Below the pieces are notes generated by a model. The model was not told the DNA's origin. It was given only the letters and a program-made list of their open reading frames with translations, and ran no database searches. Shown piece by piece: positions 56,817 to 62,895 of a DNA stretch of 64,000 nucleotides (position 1 is its first letter; each line of letters opens with the position of its first letter). The DNA comes from Methanosuratincola petrocarbonis. Its GTDB lineage: Archaea; Thermoproteota; Methanomethylicia; Methanomethylicales; Methanomethylicaceae. The position numbers and the translations under genes were made by a program. The DNA lies in NCBI GenBank assembly GCA_030522375.1, contig CP130488.1, positions 1,253,005-1,317,004 of the forward strand, in the 5' to 3' direction.

Positions 56817-56904
56817 GCGGGGGTCGCCAAGTCAGGTCAAAGGCGCAAGGCTCAGGACCTTGTGGCGAAGGCCTTCGTGGGTTCGAATCCCACTCCCCGC
56901 ACCA
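56817..56904 (+). tRNA. tRNA-Leu(CAG), intron-less, CCA encoded
   Basis: Acceptor stem GCGGGGG/TCCCCGC, anticodon arm CAAGG-CT CAG GA-CCTTG, long variable arm, GGTTCGAATCC T-loop; TTATAAAA upstream. Confidence 0.97.
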
Positions 56905-57140
56905 AGTAACCCTTCGAGGGCATGCAAGCACCCCCAGAAGCGCCGATCGGAACCTCCTTTGACCGAACATTAGACTGACGCGGCAAGGCATCCGATTATG
57001 ACCGATGAGGTTCAGGCGCTGCGATCTATGCCCAATAAAGCTGCGACTCTTTTTTCGGCAAAGCTTCCCGCTGGCCGCAGTATTGTTCCTTTGATGTAAA
57101 TTTTCCCCAAATTGGCTGTCATTACTTCAAACCTTTGTTA

Positions 57141-57169
57141 AAGTACTTAAGGTAAGTATTTTTAATACT
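57141..57169. promoter_or_regulatory. Candidate operator(s) upstream of the fibre operon
   Basis: Palindrome AAGTACTT (57141-48) and inverted repeat AGTATT-TTT-AATACT (57155-69) in an AT-rich promoter region. Confidence 0.4.
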
Positions 57170-57303
57170 AATTATTCATAAGGAAAAAAGATACATTATT
57201 TTTTATTAGTATCAATAGATATTATTATATTTGTCAGGCATTAAATCGGGGGTTGCCTGAAACCATACGACCAAAAATGCCCCGATAGAGGAGATGAGAA
57301 AAA

Positions 57304-57960
57304 ATGAAAAGTAAAATGGGAGTAATACTCGGAGTATCCATAGCAGCCATACTTATGTTAGGAGTGACTTACGGACTTTGGTTCCAGGCACTGTACATCT
57401 ACGGTACCGTCTATACCGGCACCCTCGACGCACAGTGGAGCATACACCACGCTTTTGACACCGAGCCTGATGAAAAGGACTTTAGCAACATTACCGTAAC
57501 TCCAGACATGATAGACCCCTACCTGCTTCACGTAACTGTTGAGAATGCCTATCCATGCATCACATACTACGCGGTGATCGATCTCACCAACACGGGCACT
57601 ATCCCGTGGATAGTCTACGAGGCATCGCTTGCCCCAGATCAGGACTTCCCGGGGACGGTGGAGTTCGTACCGATCGACAATATTGATGATGTTGTGGAAG
57701 ACCTCGGTTTGCTGGAAGAACTTGAACATCCAGAATTTGAAAACGGGGACCTGATGCCCATACAGAACGGGACTCAGGTGCATCCAGGGGAGTCCGCGTG
57801 GGGAGTCCTTGCAATCCATCTGACCAACGACGCTCAGGAGGACTCGACATACACCTTCAGCTTCAAGGTAGTCGTCGAGCAGTGGAATGAGTGGCCAACT
57901 GAGCCGCCAGAGGGATATGACAGCAACGAAGAGTGGCTTTTGGATCTAATAGCTGACTGA
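57304..57960 (+). CDS. SipW-dependent TasA/AbpA-like fibre subunit 1
   Basis: Signal peptide ending TYG, then LWFQALYIYGTVYTGTLD; NAYPC, NTGTIP, QVHPG, YTFSF...QWNE. Confidence 0.82.
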   Translation: MKSKMGVILGVSIAAILMLGVTYGLWFQALYIYGTVYTGTLDAQWSIHHAFDTEPDEKDFSNITVTPDMIDPYLLHVTVENAYPCITYYAVIDLTNTGTIPWIVYEASLAPDQDFPGTVEFVPIDNIDDVVEDLGLLEELEHPEFENGDLMPIQNGTQVHPGESAWGVLAIHLTNDAQEDSTYTFSFKVVVEQWNEWPTEPPEGYDSNEEWLLDLIAD

Positions 57961-57971
57961 GGGGAGCACAT

Positions 57972-58637
57972 ATGACTAACAAGAAACTGGTGCTGATTCC
58001 TGCTGCGCTGATCGTTGCGCTCTTTGCATTCTCGGTGACCTACGGGCTCTGGTTCCAAGCATTGTACGTGGAAGGCACTGTGAACACTGGTGTCTTGGAG
58101 TGGAAGATAGTAGATCAGTTCACTTCAGACGCCGGGGAGCAACCGGACAGATCCATCCTGCCAGGGTTCGAAGGGGACAGCTTTATTGTCCCTGAAGGCA
58201 AGCATGTGGGCTGGACGGATTGCGTGATCGCGGATGACGGGATGTCCGCAACCTTTACAATGTACAACACATATCCATGCTACTTAGCAATGTTCTCGGT
58301 CTACTTCCGCAACACTGGGACTGTTCCGATACACGTCGAATATATCGAGTTTTACGACGGAGGGGGCAATCTGATAGTAAACTACACTTATCCGTTCTCA
58401 GAACTCGAGGACTTTGAGCTCGACCTTACTGGCGATGGGCTTCCAGACATCGAGATACTGTGGCTAGAGCCGCTTGGGGACCAAATACACCCAGGCGATC
58501 GCTCAAGCGAGTACAGCTGGTGGGTGCACGTACTGCAGACTGCACCAGAGGGTGCCACTCTGACGTACATGATAAAGCCATTCGCGGTGCAGTGGAACGA
58601 GTCCGACTGGCCTATCCAATACGGTCAATCTACCTAA
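57972..58637 (+). CDS. SipW-dependent TasA/AbpA-like fibre subunit 2 (paralog)
   Basis: TYG then LWFQALYVEGTVNTGVLE; NTYPC, NTGTVP, QIHPG, QWNE. Confidence 0.82.
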   Translation: MTNKKLVLIPAALIVALFAFSVTYGLWFQALYVEGTVNTGVLEWKIVDQFTSDAGEQPDRSILPGFEGDSFIVPEGKHVGWTDCVIADDGMSATFTMYNTYPCYLAMFSVYFRNTGTVPIHVEYIEFYDGGGNLIVNYTYPFSELEDFELDLTGDGLPDIEILWLEPLGDQIHPGDRSSEYSWWVHVLQTAPEGATLTYMIKPFAVQWNESDWPIQYGQST

Positions 58638-58652
58638 CGAATTGAACAAAAC

Positions 58653-58667
58653 TTTTTTTCTTTTTTT
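58653..58667 (+). terminator. T-tract after the two major subunit genes
   Basis: TTTTTTTCTTTTTTT. Confidence 0.6.
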
Positions 58668-58704
58668 ATAGTTTATATGAAATGAAAGGGACGGGTGGAA
58701 GGCG

Positions 58705-59988
58705 ATGTGGTTAGTTGCTTTGGCGATGGTGCTCGGCGCTTATGCGGCGGTAAACACGCTTGGGCGATTCCTGCCTGATATGCAGTATTATTTCGCGAGT
58801 GTTATCGCTTGGGCAGCTGTGACGGCAGCGATCATACTGATGGACAGACGGATGCGTATGGGAAACCTGGCGTCCTTCAGGCTAAACAAGAGGGTTATTC
58901 TTAACGCGCTGTACCTGGCAGCCCTTCAGCTTGCTGCCCTAATTTCGACAGGCTTCTTCATGGGGTTCGGGAGGTCCCCCTATTCGCTTGTCCCTCTTTT
59001 TATTGTCGTGAACACTGCCTTCTTTGGGACAAGCATAGTAGCATTCGAGTTCGCCAGGGCATACCTGATAAAGAGCTGCTCCAAGAAGAGGATCTTTCTT
59101 GGGCTGGTTTTGGTCTCACTCCTTTTCACGGCAATATCTTTCAATTTTGCGGCGTACACAACTGCATTCGAAGGGACACGTTTCTTCGAATTCTTTGGGG
59201 GGAGAGTGATCCCAGCATTTGCCATTAACTTCGCAGCCTCGTATCTGGCACTTCTCGGGGGACCGACATCCTCACTCGCGTATATGTTCCCGATACAGGC
59301 TTTCCAGTGGCTTTCACCCATTCTTCCGAACCCTGACTGGGCAGTGAGGGGTCTCGTGAACGCAGCAATCCCTGCCCTTGGGATGCTGTTTCTGAATGAG
59401 GGTGTCAGAACGGGAATTTTGGTCAGGTACGGGCTGATCAGGAAGACAGACCTCAGGAAATTCCCGAAAAAGTCCTCAGTCCTGCCCTGGGTGCTGGTCC
59501 TGATTGTAGCCATGACAATACTCTGGGTCCCTACAGGGCTGCTCGGGTTCAAGCCCACGGTTGTTGCCAGCAGCAGCATGAGCCCGACGCTCGAGATCGG
59601 CGACGTCGTGATAGCGGTTCCATCGGATCCCAGCGATGTAAAGACCGGCGACATCGTCCAGTACACGCGGGCAGGGTACCAAATATCAATTACCCACAGG
59701 GTCATTAGCGTCGAGCCTTCGGGGAACACATACATAATCACTACGAAGGGTGACGCCAACAACATCGCCGACGACCCGATAAGCGTGACTGGGAAGATTG
59801 GGAAGGTTGTGCGAGTGATCCCTAAGATCGGGTGGGTGACAATATACCTTAGGAACCTCGTTTCTGACCTCCTGCAGTTCGGTAGCAGAGGTTCGGTCGC
59901 GCCGGCTTCGGTCGCCCCGATCTTGTGGGATGGTCTTATGATGCGTATTCAAAACATTGAGGAAGGGGGGTTATGCCTTGAGACATAG
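58705..59988 (+). CDS. sipW: SipW/Sec11-type (S26B) signal peptidase fused to an N-terminal multi-TM domain
   Basis: VASSSMSPTL..GDVV (Ser), ITHRV (His), TKGDANN; about 7-8 TM segments upstream of the peptidase domain. Confidence 0.85.
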   Translation: MWLVALAMVLGAYAAVNTLGRFLPDMQYYFASVIAWAAVTAAIILMDRRMRMGNLASFRLNKRVILNALYLAALQLAALISTGFFMGFGRSPYSLVPLFIVVNTAFFGTSIVAFEFARAYLIKSCSKKRIFLGLVLVSLLFTAISFNFAAYTTAFEGTRFFEFFGGRVIPAFAINFAASYLALLGGPTSSLAYMFPIQAFQWLSPILPNPDWAVRGLVNAAIPALGMLFLNEGVRTGILVRYGLIRKTDLRKFPKKSSVLPWVLVLIVAMTILWVPTGLLGFKPTVVASSSMSPTLEIGDVVIAVPSDPSDVKTGDIVQYTRAGYQISITHRVISVEPSGNTYIITTKGDANNIADDPISVTGKIGKVVRVIPKIGWVTIYLRNLVSDLLQFGSRGSVAPASVAPILWDGLMMRIQNIEEGGLCLET

Positions 59989-60712
59989 GTCAAGAAGACT
60001 TGTTAAGAAGGTTTTGATTATCGGATTCTTGCCGGTTCTGATTCTGGCCGCACTCGGAAACACTTACGCGTTGCTCTTCCAGACGCTTGAGATACATGGG
60101 GTAGTACATACTGGCTTCTGGGGCGGGGGAGGCGTGGAGGGGCCCTGTGTAGGCATACAGAAGACCCTCGACGGCGCCTTCACCAACGCCACCACTGGGG
60201 AGGACCTTTCCGAAAGGACCGACCTCATACACATCGGGAACGCAAACCCCCCTTATTTCCCAACGAAGTTCAAACTGACGATCTGCGTCCACAACTGCGG
60301 CAATGAGACGCTTACAGGAGTGGTCGTGACCGACCGGCTGGAGAACCAGTTCGGGGTGATCAACTGGAGTGCAAACACGGGAGATGTGACCATACTGAGC
60401 TTCCCCGGTCCGGGGAACTACAGCAATGAGTACATAGTCTGGGAGGTCGGGGCGCTACAAGACGGGGAAGGCGCCTGCCTTGAGATGTGGATCCAGACCC
60501 TCCAAAACCCTGCTGGCTGGTACGCACCAACATCGGGCGGCACGACATATATCATCAATCAAGGGGCATCGGTCTTTGCCACAAGCAGCAGTGGAGACCT
60601 ATGGGCGAACACGGGTAGCCTCTCGATATCGCTCTCTCCAGAGGGCGACAATCACATTGCGACAATATTGACCCAGCTGCCTTACTCGACACCATGGGAG
60701 TACAGCCCCTGA
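59978..60712 (+). CDS. Third SipW-type substrate with DUF11-like Ig domain (minor subunit)
   Basis: NTYA then LLFQTLEIHGVVHTG; LTICVHNCGNETLTGVVVTDRL; TTG at 59978 after GGAAGGGGGG. Confidence 0.75.
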   Translation: MRHRSRRLVKKVLIIGFLPVLILAALGNTYALLFQTLEIHGVVHTGFWGGGGVEGPCVGIQKTLDGAFTNATTGEDLSERTDLIHIGNANPPYFPTKFKLTICVHNCGNETLTGVVVTDRLENQFGVINWSANTGDVTILSFPGPGNYSNEYIVWEVGALQDGEGACLEMWIQTLQNPAGWYAPTSGGTTYIINQGASVFATSSSGDLWANTGSLSISLSPEGDNHIATILTQLPYSTPWEYSP

Positions 60713-60762
60713 CTGAAATTTTTTTGTAAAAATTTAATAGTTTGAAAAATAGGAATATAACT

Positions 60763-61773
60763 ATGAAGATCTCCATATTAAAAATTGCAATCGTTGTATT
60801 CATAATAGCTTCAACAATAAGCGCTGTTGGCCTAACGTATGCCTATCTTACCCCGACAGAAAGTGTCGAAACTACGATCAAGGCAATCTACAGGCACACG
60901 GGTAGTTACGACTATGTGGCTCACATTGCCCCCAACCTGATATACAACAGGACGGAAGTCGGCCCGGATGTGCAGAGGGTCTACACCAATCTGCTCGAGT
61001 GGATGGATCTCTACTTCGCATACAGCTTTGTCACAAACGCATCTGTCATTAGCCTAGATTCAGATATTTCCCTTAAAGTAGCAATAGAGTCGCCCAATAG
61101 GTGGGGCAGGGAGTTGACTGCTGCTGAGGCAGCAGCACTTGCCAACCTAAGCATCGGGGATACCGGATTCCATCTCACCGTGAACAAGAGTTCCCTGGAC
61201 GCGTTCGTGAAGCTGCTCGACCTCGAGACTGGTACAAGCACTACCGAGTACAACCTGAGGATCACGCCTACGGTATTGACCAGTGCGGTCACATCCTCCG
61301 GAAATGTGCAGGATAAGTTTGCGCCAGAGACCAATGTCTCCTTCAAGCAGGACACAGGCGGCAGATATTTGACGGTCTCTCCGCTCAGCTCTTCGAAGGA
61401 GGGAAAATTAGTTGAGACCAAGCAGGTCAAATACGAATACGTGGTCAATCAGAGGATCCTGTTCGCGGTCTCTCTCTTGGCGTCACTGGCAGGGCTCGCA
61501 TTCACTGGATGGACGTACTTCAGAAAACGGCAGCCGAAGAGCCGTTCCGAGCTAGTCGGGCGAATACTTAGCGCAAACAGGGATGTTATAGTGAAAGCCA
61601 AGATCGATGAGGAGGAGGCGACAAAACGCGTGGAAGTCAAGGACTTCGAGGAGCTCAGGAAGCTCGCCGAGATTCTGGCAAGACCGATCTTGCACACGCT
61701 GACTGATAAGGAGCACCAGTTCTCGGTGTTTGACAATGGCACTAGGTACACATACAAGATTTCCGAAGAGTAA
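60763..61773 (+). CDS. DUF5305-like membrane-anchored protein
   Basis: N-terminal TM ending TYAY, HTGSYDY, extracellular beta domain, C-terminal TM, VEVKDFEEL.KLA....PIL tail. Confidence 0.65.
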   Translation: MKISILKIAIVVFIIASTISAVGLTYAYLTPTESVETTIKAIYRHTGSYDYVAHIAPNLIYNRTEVGPDVQRVYTNLLEWMDLYFAYSFVTNASVISLDSDISLKVAIESPNRWGRELTAAEAAALANLSIGDTGFHLTVNKSSLDAFVKLLDLETGTSTTEYNLRITPTVLTSAVTSSGNVQDKFAPETNVSFKQDTGGRYLTVSPLSSSKEGKLVETKQVKYEYVVNQRILFAVSLLASLAGLAFTGWTYFRKRQPKSRSELVGRILSANRDVIVKAKIDEEEATKRVEVKDFEELRKLAEILARPILHTLTDKEHQFSVFDNGTRYTYKISEE

Positions 61774-61776
61774 AAC

Positions 61777-61801
61777 TTTTTTAGTTTTTTATTCAATTTT
61801 T
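61777..61801 (+). terminator. T-tract terminator
   Basis: TTTTTTAGTTTTTTATTCAATTTTT. Confidence 0.55.
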
Positions 61802-61910
61802 GTATTACAGATAAACATAATAATGTTTTTATATTGTGTTAATAATATATTGATGGAATCCAGTTTCTAGGATTGACAGTTATCCGTCCGGAGGAAGACA
61901 GGGGATAGAT

Positions 61911-62186
61911 TTGGGAAAATCCAAGAGGGCACTATTTGATGTCCTATCCTCGATACTCGAAGTGGCTGATAAGAAGGGCGGGGTGAACAAGACTGCAATA
62001 GTGTACAATGCAAACCTCAACTTCCTCCGTGCCGAAGAGCACATAAGGCTGCTGGTGAACCACGGGCTCCTGAGCACCTTGCAAGACGGAACGAAGTACT
62101 GCACAACAGAGAAGGGGAGAGAGTTCCTCCAGCAGTACAGAAGCCTCTTGCGACTGATTAGACAAAACAACGGATTGAAGGATTAA
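61911..62186 (+). CDS. Winged helix-turn-helix transcriptional regulator (archaeal HTH_45-like)
   Basis: R....SIL...KTAIVYNANLNF......L...GLL......Y.TTEKGREFL. Confidence 0.85.
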   Translation: MGKSKRALFDVLSSILEVADKKGGVNKTAIVYNANLNFLRAEEHIRLLVNHGLLSTLQDGTKYCTTEKGREFLQQYRSLLRLIRQNNGLKD

Positions 62187-62453: not shown

Positions 62454-62895
62454 TTGTGCGACTGGTGCAGCAAGCACGGCGCTGGGAAGAAGTGGTACCT
62501 GAATGCCAGAAACTACTCGAATGAGCTGGGACGAGCTGAGGGCAAAGGAGTACCTGAGCGAGCAGTGGACCAACTTCGAGCAGGTCTACATAAGGAAGAT
62601 TATGGGGATATCCTCCGTCGACCTGGGCTACAAGCTCAAGCTCCCGATAATCGGGAGGATGCTACGATGGCAGGCAGAGAGGATGATCCACAGTGAGTCT
62701 AAGAACCGGAACCCGAGGAGGGCGGATGGGCACTTCGGCCAGGTCATCCCCCTCGAGGAGGCAAAGATAATCCTGGGGAACCTCGCAGCCGAGCCGATCT
62801 CGAACGGGTCAACCTCGGTCATTTCATGGAGAAGCTGTGCTTTCATGGGCATAAACGGCTCATCCGCGACAAGGTCTCAAACTATCGACCCTTGA
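62454..62895 (+). pseudogene. Frameshifted, truncated N-terminal fragment of a probable 4Fe-4S protein
   Basis: MCDWCSKHGAGKKWYLNARNYSNEL switches frame near 62530 to DELRAKEYL...GHFGQVIPLEEAK; no ferredoxin Cys motifs follow before the stop. Confidence 0.6.

Follow-up and report, generated by a model that had tools for sequence, protein, structure and literature searches.

What do the six genes clustered beside a tRNA-Leu gene of the archaeon Methanosuratincola petrocarbonis encode, and do they belong to a fibre system that is already known? The genes lie within a stretch of 64,000 nucleotides (contig CP130488.1 of assembly GCA_030522375.1, positions 1,253,005 to 1,317,004), hereafter the window. 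A first-pass annotation, made from the sequence alone, took them for a SipW/TasA-type locus, in which secreted subunits are processed by a neighbouring signal peptidase and then polymerize by donor-strand insertion. The analysis described here leads to a narrower answer. With a probability of about 0.8, the locus is a module for AbpX-type fibres, which fall within the TasA superfamily; the subunits would be cut by their own signal peptidase. Two observations speak for this assignment: the profile of the subunit family matches AbpX, and the gene set equals that of published archaeal abpX loci.

The locus spans window positions 57304-62186 on the + strand, where six intact open reading frames share one orientation and tRNA-Leu(CAG) lies directly upstream. 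The six co-oriented genes of the first-pass annotation, and their position next to tRNA-Leu, are both borne out; only the starts of g4 and g5 call for small corrections. The elements are as follows.

56817-56904, + strand: tRNA-Leu(CAG), found by ARAGORN; the left landmark of the site, outside the fibre machinery.
57130-57262, + strand: AT-rich block, conserved among relatives; probable promoter or regulatory region of g1.
57304-57960, + strand: g1, AbpX-like fibril subunit (218 residues; phmmer and family profile against AbpX).
57972-58637, + strand: g2, second AbpX-like subunit and g1 paralogue, possibly a minor subunit (221 residues; BLASTP).
58648-58668, + strand: T7CT7 tract separating g2 from g3, a candidate for an archaeal oligo-T terminator or attenuator.
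58705-59988, + strand: g3, dedicated long-form signal peptidase I (427 residues; TIGR02228).
59978-60712, + strand: g4, third substrate, candidate tip or minor subunit (244 residues; Pfam DUF11, hhalign).
60742-61773, + strand: g5, DUF5305 protein, putative accessory subunit of the peptidase, possibly an anchor (343 residues; Pfam PF17231).
61772-61790, + strand: second T-rich tract, after g5, putative terminator (from its sequence).
61911-62186, + strand: g6, small winged-helix protein of the HTH_45/Sso10a family, putative locus regulator (91 residues; Pfam, NCBIfam).

A longer reading frame for g4 starts at 59957 (251 residues), but the ATG at 59978 is the likeliest start, because database orthologues have 244 residues. 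The true start of g5 may be the ATG at 60763 instead of 60742.

The two secreted subunits, g1 and g2, are paralogues as first proposed (32% identity, E 2e-18, BLASTP), and domain searches of Pfam and NCBIfam assigned neither to a curated family. When g1 alone was compared with all chains of the Protein Data Bank (PDB) by phmmer, a single entry was returned: AbpX of Pyrodictium abyssi (9sj2, E 0.0021). In this alignment g1 W26 stands opposite W2, the AbpX "Trp clamp", and the TGTLD and AYP...NtGTIP motifs also line up. A family profile, A1, was then built from g1, g2, and 28 homologues (30 members). It matches the AbpX fibril 9sj2 at E 6.3e-18 and the self-complemented AbpX crystal form 9rhp at E 1.4e-12, covering the donor strand plus the core, and it scores g2 at E 2.7e-55 within its own genome. 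Searched against all PDB chains, this profile matched none from TasA, AbpA, threads, cannulae, or Tafi pili at E<=1; the chains searched include the TasA fibre 8aur, and the other four kinds are expected among them, their presence being unconfirmed. In a library of 1.84 billion proteins the subunit family comprises 4,704 representative clusters at E<=1e-3. The earlier reading of a TasA/ABP-like donor-strand fibre locus is therefore supported in its core: homology to AbpX (E 6e-18) and an abpX-type gene set speak for it, with the refinement that the closest relative is neither TasA nor AbpA.

AbpX polymerizes by donor-strand complementation, with three calcium ions at the interface between strand and groove; within the TasA superfamily, AbpX-like proteins make up a clade of their own, and the homologues are acidic, with a low isoelectric point (bioRxiv 10.64898/2026.01.04.697558). 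Cleavage sites in the window proteins were placed by alignment to mature AbpX. For g1, the signal peptide is predicted to occupy residues 1-24, with cleavage between TYG and LW, and the donor strand to read LWFQALYIYGTV; the predicted donor strand of g2 is LWFQALYVEGTV. In g4 the cut is predicted to follow T-Y-A, and in g1 and g2 it is predicted to follow T-Y-G24. The even donor-strand positions of g1, g2, and g4 read W/L-Q-L-I/V-G-V, mirroring the buried W2-E4-L6-L8-A10-I12 of AbpX, and the aromatic residue at position 2 is Trp in g1 and g2, aligned to AbpX W2. The Asp of TGTLD (AbpX D18) is retained; the AbpX D46/D48/E52 loop is not reliably alignable. Low isoelectric point (about 4) and roughly 15% Asp plus Glu, both traits of the AbpX family, are found in g1 and g2 alike: the mature proteins each have an isoelectric point of 4.05, with Asp plus Glu contents of 19.6% (g1) and 15.3% (g2).

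An AlphaFold2 model of g1, computed from the family alignment, is a confident all-β sandwich (predicted local distance difference test, pLDDT, 86.9) preceded by a helical signal peptide. Residues 26-41, in the region of the donor strand, have no secondary structure in the model and are of lower confidence. The N-terminal strand is likewise unstructured in the AbpX monomer (bioRxiv 10.64898/2026.01.04.697558).

g1 and its Methanosuratincolaceae orthologues have two segments that the rest of the family lacks: an acidic insertion near residues 120-160 (window ~57660-57780), and a C-terminal extension, EPPxGYDSNEEWL... (window 57880-57960), in which a helix is predicted at 208-217. These clade-specific segments may mediate contacts between fibres.

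Which enzyme would process these subunits? g3 matches TIGR02228, archaeal signal peptidase I, with 84.3 bits (cut-off 51.85; E 7.9e-24), over residues 257-383 only. Its alignment comprises 17 long-form homologues from Methanosuratincola, Bathyarchaeia, Desulfurococcales, and Syntrophomonadaceae, and in all 17 the residues Ser291 (in SSSMSPT), His331-Arg332, and Asp350 (in KGDANN) are invariant. A Ser/His peptidase of the S26B type, as first proposed, is thereby corroborated. Eight or nine conserved hydrophobic stretches precede the catalytic domain and one follows it, with an anchor helix at 256-283; this pattern is consistent with the ten-transmembrane form described in the AbpX preprint. Against the SipW equivalog model NF046067, g3 scores 47.4 bits where the cut-off is 190, so it is not a SipW orthologue. 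SipW-type processing, as originally described, accordingly holds as far as a dedicated S26B peptidase beside its substrates is concerned, but the enzyme is a long form of roughly ten helices, far below the SipW cut-off. The hidden Markov model search proposed in the first-pass annotation gave a plain negative: neither the SipW-cognate signal (TIGR04088) nor the TasA/camelysin family Peptidase_M73 (PF12389) was matched by g1, g2, or g4 at E<=1.

The genome holds exactly two signal peptidase I genes: g3, and a short two-helix form that is presumably the housekeeping enzyme. Since this separate short enzyme is encoded elsewhere, g3 is an extra copy dedicated to the locus. The short gene is found at 983374-983877 of the contig, between the genes for a 2-oxoacid:ferredoxin oxidoreductase beta-subunit and the TATA-binding protein (TBP).

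The polytopic part of g3 (residues 1-255; window 58705-59469) has features of its own. Glu115 and Arg118 (in AFEFARAYLIK), Pro170, Gly186, Pro205, Pro208, and Trp212 are invariant across archaeal and bacterial long forms. In isolation this N-terminal domain has no Pfam match at E<=10. Identity as a CPBP/Abi intramembrane protease was considered and found no sequence support: 0 of the 17 homologues match PF02517 at E<=1, and only one invariant E115-x-x-R118 is present, versus the expected EExxxR plus FxxxH.

g5 is the single DUF5305 protein of the genome (PF17231, E 1.3e-14, above the cut-off). From its hydropathy it is predicted to have an N-terminal helix and another at about 234-257, with some 200 extracellular residues between them and roughly 85 cytoplasmic residues at the end, in agreement with the preprint's description of DUF5305 proteins. 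The membrane-anchored DUF5305-like protein of the earlier reading is thus present, but the literature sees in DUF5305 an accessory of the peptidase, not simply an anchored partner. In the haloarchaeal Tafi system, the DUF5305 protein TafG has likewise been proposed to help the peptidase TafD (PMC12337348).

g4 had been described as a third substrate with the same cleavage signature, and this description holds. A whole-genome search with the subunit-family profile finds the g4 N-terminus (E 4e-4), and hhalign aligns the g4 family, A2, with the subunit family over 137 columns (97.9% probability, E 6e-13); the two families are homologous. The g4 signature, TYA followed by LLFQTLEIHGVV, has the same pattern of signal and donor strand as g1 and g2. 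Pfam detects DUF11 (E 3e-8), a β-sandwich repeat of the DUF11/CLIPPER type, and the AlphaFold2 model is a β-sandwich (pLDDT 85.1). The g4-family profile has no meaningful match in the PDB. By analogy with the published scheme of abpX loci, g4 may be the tip or terminal subunit.

The C-terminal motif LPYSTPW of g4 (window 60688-60712) is invariant or nearly so in 18 of 18 members of its family. It may be a self-complementing strand, or a motif for recognition or anchoring.

The last gene, g6, matches Pfam HTH_45 (E 1.4e-18) and the NCBIfam Sso10a_fam (E 2.4e-19), in keeping with the winged-helix regulator seen in the first reading.

Together these genes reproduce a published arrangement. In most archaeal abpX loci, the major subunit is encoded together with a minor subunit resembling AbpX, a tip, a ten-transmembrane signal peptidase I, a DUF5305 "SPase accessory", and sometimes a transcription factor (bioRxiv 10.64898/2026.01.04.697558). 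The window locus resembles them in its subunit family, the acidity of its subunits, the donor strand with Trp at position 2, the TGTLD motif, the signal peptidase I of about ten helices, DUF5305, the minor subunit, the tip-like protein, and the small transcription factor. P. abyssi itself differs in having subunit and peptidase only. In comparison with AbpX (9SJ2, 9RHP), the window proteins differ at strand position 4, where they carry Gln, and g1 differs in its insertion at about 120-160 and its C-terminal extension.

Several points weigh against the AbpX assignment, and some of them favour a different explanation: that the secreted proteins are monomeric or S-layer-associated surface proteins, carbohydrate-binding or adhesive β-sandwiches, which share a special signal peptide and a dedicated peptidase. 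The first concerns calcium. Donor-strand position 4 is Gln in g1, g2, g4, and close Methanosuratincola orthologues, and Glu in most other family members. The acidic calcium ligand, AbpX E4, is thus replaced on three donor strands, and AbpX's calcium-triggered step therefore may not apply here. In the preprint, position 4 is called strongly conserved, and calcium coordination is predicted "frequently, although not universally" (bioRxiv 10.64898/2026.01.04.697558). The second concerns structure comparison. With the full-length g1 model, Foldseek ranks the TasA fibre 8aur first among PDB entries, at a non-significant E of 0.037 (template modelling, TM, score 0.32), so that g1 has no significant fibre match; AbpX entries were absent from the Foldseek library results, and scores of this kind are lowered by the signal helix and the loose strand that the models include. 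With g4, Foldseek returns CBM3-, CBM2-, and CLIPPER-like sandwiches (E ~1e-4, low TM), and g1 itself has a weak Pfam match to CBM_4_9 (E 0.017).

Other points bear on the fibre assignment directly. The g4 donor strand has Leu at position 2, without the aromatic residue. The SipW-cognate signal model TIGR04088 is reached by none of g1, g2, and g4 at E<=1, and weakly by four of 30 distant relatives (best E 1.5e-4). Finally, the locus is missing from several congeners, and hence is dispensable.

Nevertheless, proteins that act singly at the surface would not readily account for the AbpX profile homology, which runs through donor strand and core (E 6e-18), nor for an alternating hydrophobic N-terminal strand that is kept throughout a family counting over 4,700 representative clusters. 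That this strand is unstructured in the g1 monomer model, as reported for AbpX, also counts against them. The surface-protein explanation consequently appears unlikely, and an AbpX-type fibre remains the preferred interpretation.

How did the locus come to lie where it does? The genome is a single contig of 1,538,194 bp with 54.416% guanine plus cytosine (GC). The closest homologues are annotated as Candidatus Methanosuratincola, and the genome encodes McrA (E 1.8e-66), so that the probable methanogen of the first-pass annotation is confirmed as such. M. petrocarbonis LWZ-6 was described from culture as non-motile cocci that "formed aggregates", with a genome of 1.54 Mbp and 54.42 mol% GC (PMC12244365).

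Synteny is clear. The same six genes occupy the same site in three relatives: L001, a 1.52-Mb genome of Methanosuratincola verstraetei; L002, a metagenomic contig; and L005, whose subunits are only 57% identical. A comparison across relatives, suggested at the outset, thus came out positive. The shared order is inositol phosphatase, tRNA-Leu, the locus, variable genes, and Ogg, except in L005, where the genes downstream of the locus differ. tRNA-Leu(CAG) flanks the locus in L001 and L005, and it also flanks the locus-free sites of G029, G032, and G024. An HTH_45 gene accompanies the locus in all three relatives and in L003, a Desulfurococcales locus of analogous layout. All six genes are under purifying selection, with ratios of nonsynonymous to synonymous substitution (dN/dS) of 0.07-0.21 between the window and L001.

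Within the class, surveyed with one genome per species (n=61; eight genomes in the genus), the subunit family is present in 13 of 61 genomes, and in five of the eight from the genus. DUF5305 is found in 17 of 61. Twelve of the 13 subunit-positive genomes also carry DUF5305 (odds ratio 103, p 4e-8, with no phylogenetic correction), and in every case where one contig carries both genes, only a few kilobases separate them.

The interval from tRNA-Leu to Ogg is a variable site within the family. In G029, of the same genus, it holds panE, panB, a gene for a 1,011-residue NosD/β-helix/Ig-like surface protein, and a frameshifted remnant of g6 (HTH_45). G032 and G024 have a short locus-free interval at this site. 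G017, from another genus of the same family, keeps only a C-terminal remnant of g5 (DUF5305). Because locus-free genomes retain remnants of g6 (G029) or g5 (G017), ancestral presence followed by repeated loss is favoured over recent gain.

Recent gain is what a second explanation would require: that the locus is an island integrated at tRNA-Leu, foreign cargo that is possibly poorly expressed. It abuts a tRNA gene; its GC is lower than that of the left flank (0.51 against about 0.60); its presence is patchy in genus and class, as just described; and archaeal and bacterial AbpX sequences intermix (bioRxiv 10.64898/2026.01.04.697558). Genome-wide, however, the GC of the locus is unexceptional: among segments of equal size it ranks at the 17th percentile. 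Neither an integrase gene nor a tRNA-derived direct repeat was found at the locus. Species whose proteins are as little as 57% identical carry the locus at this very site, pseudogene remnants persist in locus-free genomes, and the dN/dS values are low. The genomic-island explanation was rejected on these grounds and is very improbable.

The right flank carries a remnant of another gene. Positions 62454-62800 of the window correspond to a gene that is intact in L001 (289 residues, with C-terminal 4Fe-4S motifs); here residues 1-26 and 27-116 lie in different frames, and about 170 C-terminal residues are gone. This is probably a pseudogene, and it indicates plasticity to the right of the fibre locus as well.

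A third explanation is very improbable: that the locus lies outside the AbpX clade and specifies a pilus like Tafi or the threads (TafA/E or Saci_0406 clade), or else an orthologue of TasA. Tafi loci do combine pilins and a tip with the signal peptidase TafD, the DUF5305 protein TafG, and the regulator TafB (PMC12337348), and all these families fall within the TasA superfamily (bioRxiv 10.64898/2026.01.04.697558). But the family profile matches AbpX alone among PDB chains at E<=1 (a set that contains 8aur and is expected, though unconfirmed, to contain thread and Tafi subunits), Peptidase_M73 is unmatched, and the ten-helix peptidase is said to be specific to AbpX loci (bioRxiv 10.64898/2026.01.04.697558).

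As an AbpX-type module, the locus can be set beside its better-known relatives. Haloarchaeal Tafi is built from the same kinds of module: pilins of the donor-strand type, their own signal peptidase, a helper with DUF5305, a regulator, and a tip protein (PMC12337348), and a fibre role for the window locus would parallel the role of Tafi (TafA/E, TafB, TafC, TafD, TafF, TafG) in bundling and biofilms (PMC12337348). The Tafi subunits belong to another clade, however (no profile match), many Tafi pilins use the twin-arginine translocation (Tat) pathway, and for the TafF anchor no counterpart was seen in the window.

The tapA-sipW-tasA operon of Bacillus subtilis also belongs to the TasA superfamily and has a Ser/His peptidase of the endoplasmic reticulum type beside its substrates; its donor-strand polymerization and its biofilm matrix may have counterparts in the window organism. 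The differences are several. The window subunits match neither Peptidase_M73 nor TIGR04088; there is no TapA homologue; and DUF5305 and HTH_45 are extra in the window. g3 falls below the SipW equivalog cut-off (47 versus 190 bits) and bears a polytopic domain of about 255 residues. AbpA/AbpB of Pyrobaculum calidifontis are archaeal donor-strand filaments of the same superfamily, implicated in cell-cell bundling (PMC9245690); those of the window are predicted. Unlike AbpX, AbpA is remote: the window profile returned no PDB chain named AbpA at E<=1, and AbpA sits in a more distant cluster (bioRxiv 10.64898/2026.01.04.697558).

These parallels suggest a pathway for fibre formation. g1, g2, and g4 would be exported through Sec by means of their long signal peptides. 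g3, probably together with g5, would cleave after the conserved T-Y-G/A and thereby release an amphipathic N-terminal strand, with the W/L-Q-L-I/V-G-V pattern at its even positions. The freed strand would enter the open groove of the β-sandwich in the next subunit (donor-strand complementation), making a chaperone or usher unnecessary. The product would be thin acidic fibrils of g1 and g2, with g4 as a divergent terminal subunit, either tip or adhesin. Such fibrils could form a matrix between cells, which would fit the aggregate growth reported for LWZ-6.

A more elaborate version of this pathway is speculative, and we think it doubtful. The polytopic domain of g3 (Glu115/Arg118) and the DUF5305 protein g5 would constitute one usher-like membrane machine for assembly and anchoring, which recognizes T-Y-G/A followed by L-W/L-F-Q-x-L, holds the freed strand, and hands subunits to the fibre; the Glu-to-Gln change would make assembly independent of calcium, and the fibres would be the matrix of LWZ-6 aggregates.

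Expression of the locus may be adjusted by g6, which would control transcription, and by the T-rich tracts. Archaeal RNA polymerase terminates at oligo-T tracts. Two similar tracts are present, AAAACTTTTTTTCTTTTTT after g2 (58648-58668) and AAAACTTTTTTAGTTTTTT after g5 (61772-61790), and the T7CT7 tract after g2 is conserved in the four genomes compared (the window genome, L001, L002, and L005). Judged from their sequence, these tracts are candidate oligo-T terminators that may divide the cluster into units g1-g2, g3-g5, and g6. They may thus keep subunit transcripts far more abundant than those for the machinery, with the tract after g2 giving an excess of subunits over the processing genes, and separate g6 from the rest. 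Upstream of g1, at a distance of about 50-170 nucleotides, L001 and L002 share the AT-rich block GTAAGTATTTTTAATAC...TTATTTTTTATTA, of which L005 keeps a part.

How new is all this? The first-pass annotation knew of no such system characterized in methylotrophic TACK methanogens. Table S3 of the January 2026 preprint, however, lists a six-protein locus of Methanosuratincola subterraneus among representative archaeal abpX loci (bioRxiv 10.64898/2026.01.04.697558), and this appears to be the locus described here as it occurs in a sister species. The remark therefore holds only insofar as there has been no experiment in a methanogen so far; in the literature library searched, no report of pili or tomography in Methanosuratincola was found. 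The locus is an expected member of a known system, and it adds little as a discovery, since this kind of locus has been published already, as has its occurrence in the genus. What distinguishes it locally is the Glu-to-Gln change on the donor strands, the conserved T-tract within the operon, the gain/loss polymorphism at tRNA-Leu, and the probable host, a cultured methanogen that forms aggregates.

TasA/AbpX fibres are emerging as a matrix scaffold common to bacterial and archaeal biofilms. The locus would place an AbpX-type fibre in a methanogen of the Thermoproteota that grows in pure culture and is reported to form aggregates, so that a link between fibre and aggregation becomes directly testable. 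The natural Glu-to-Gln variant, in turn, offers a ready test of whether the calcium switch is necessary. Such aggregation matters for syntrophy and for how cells are retained in oil reservoirs and hot springs.

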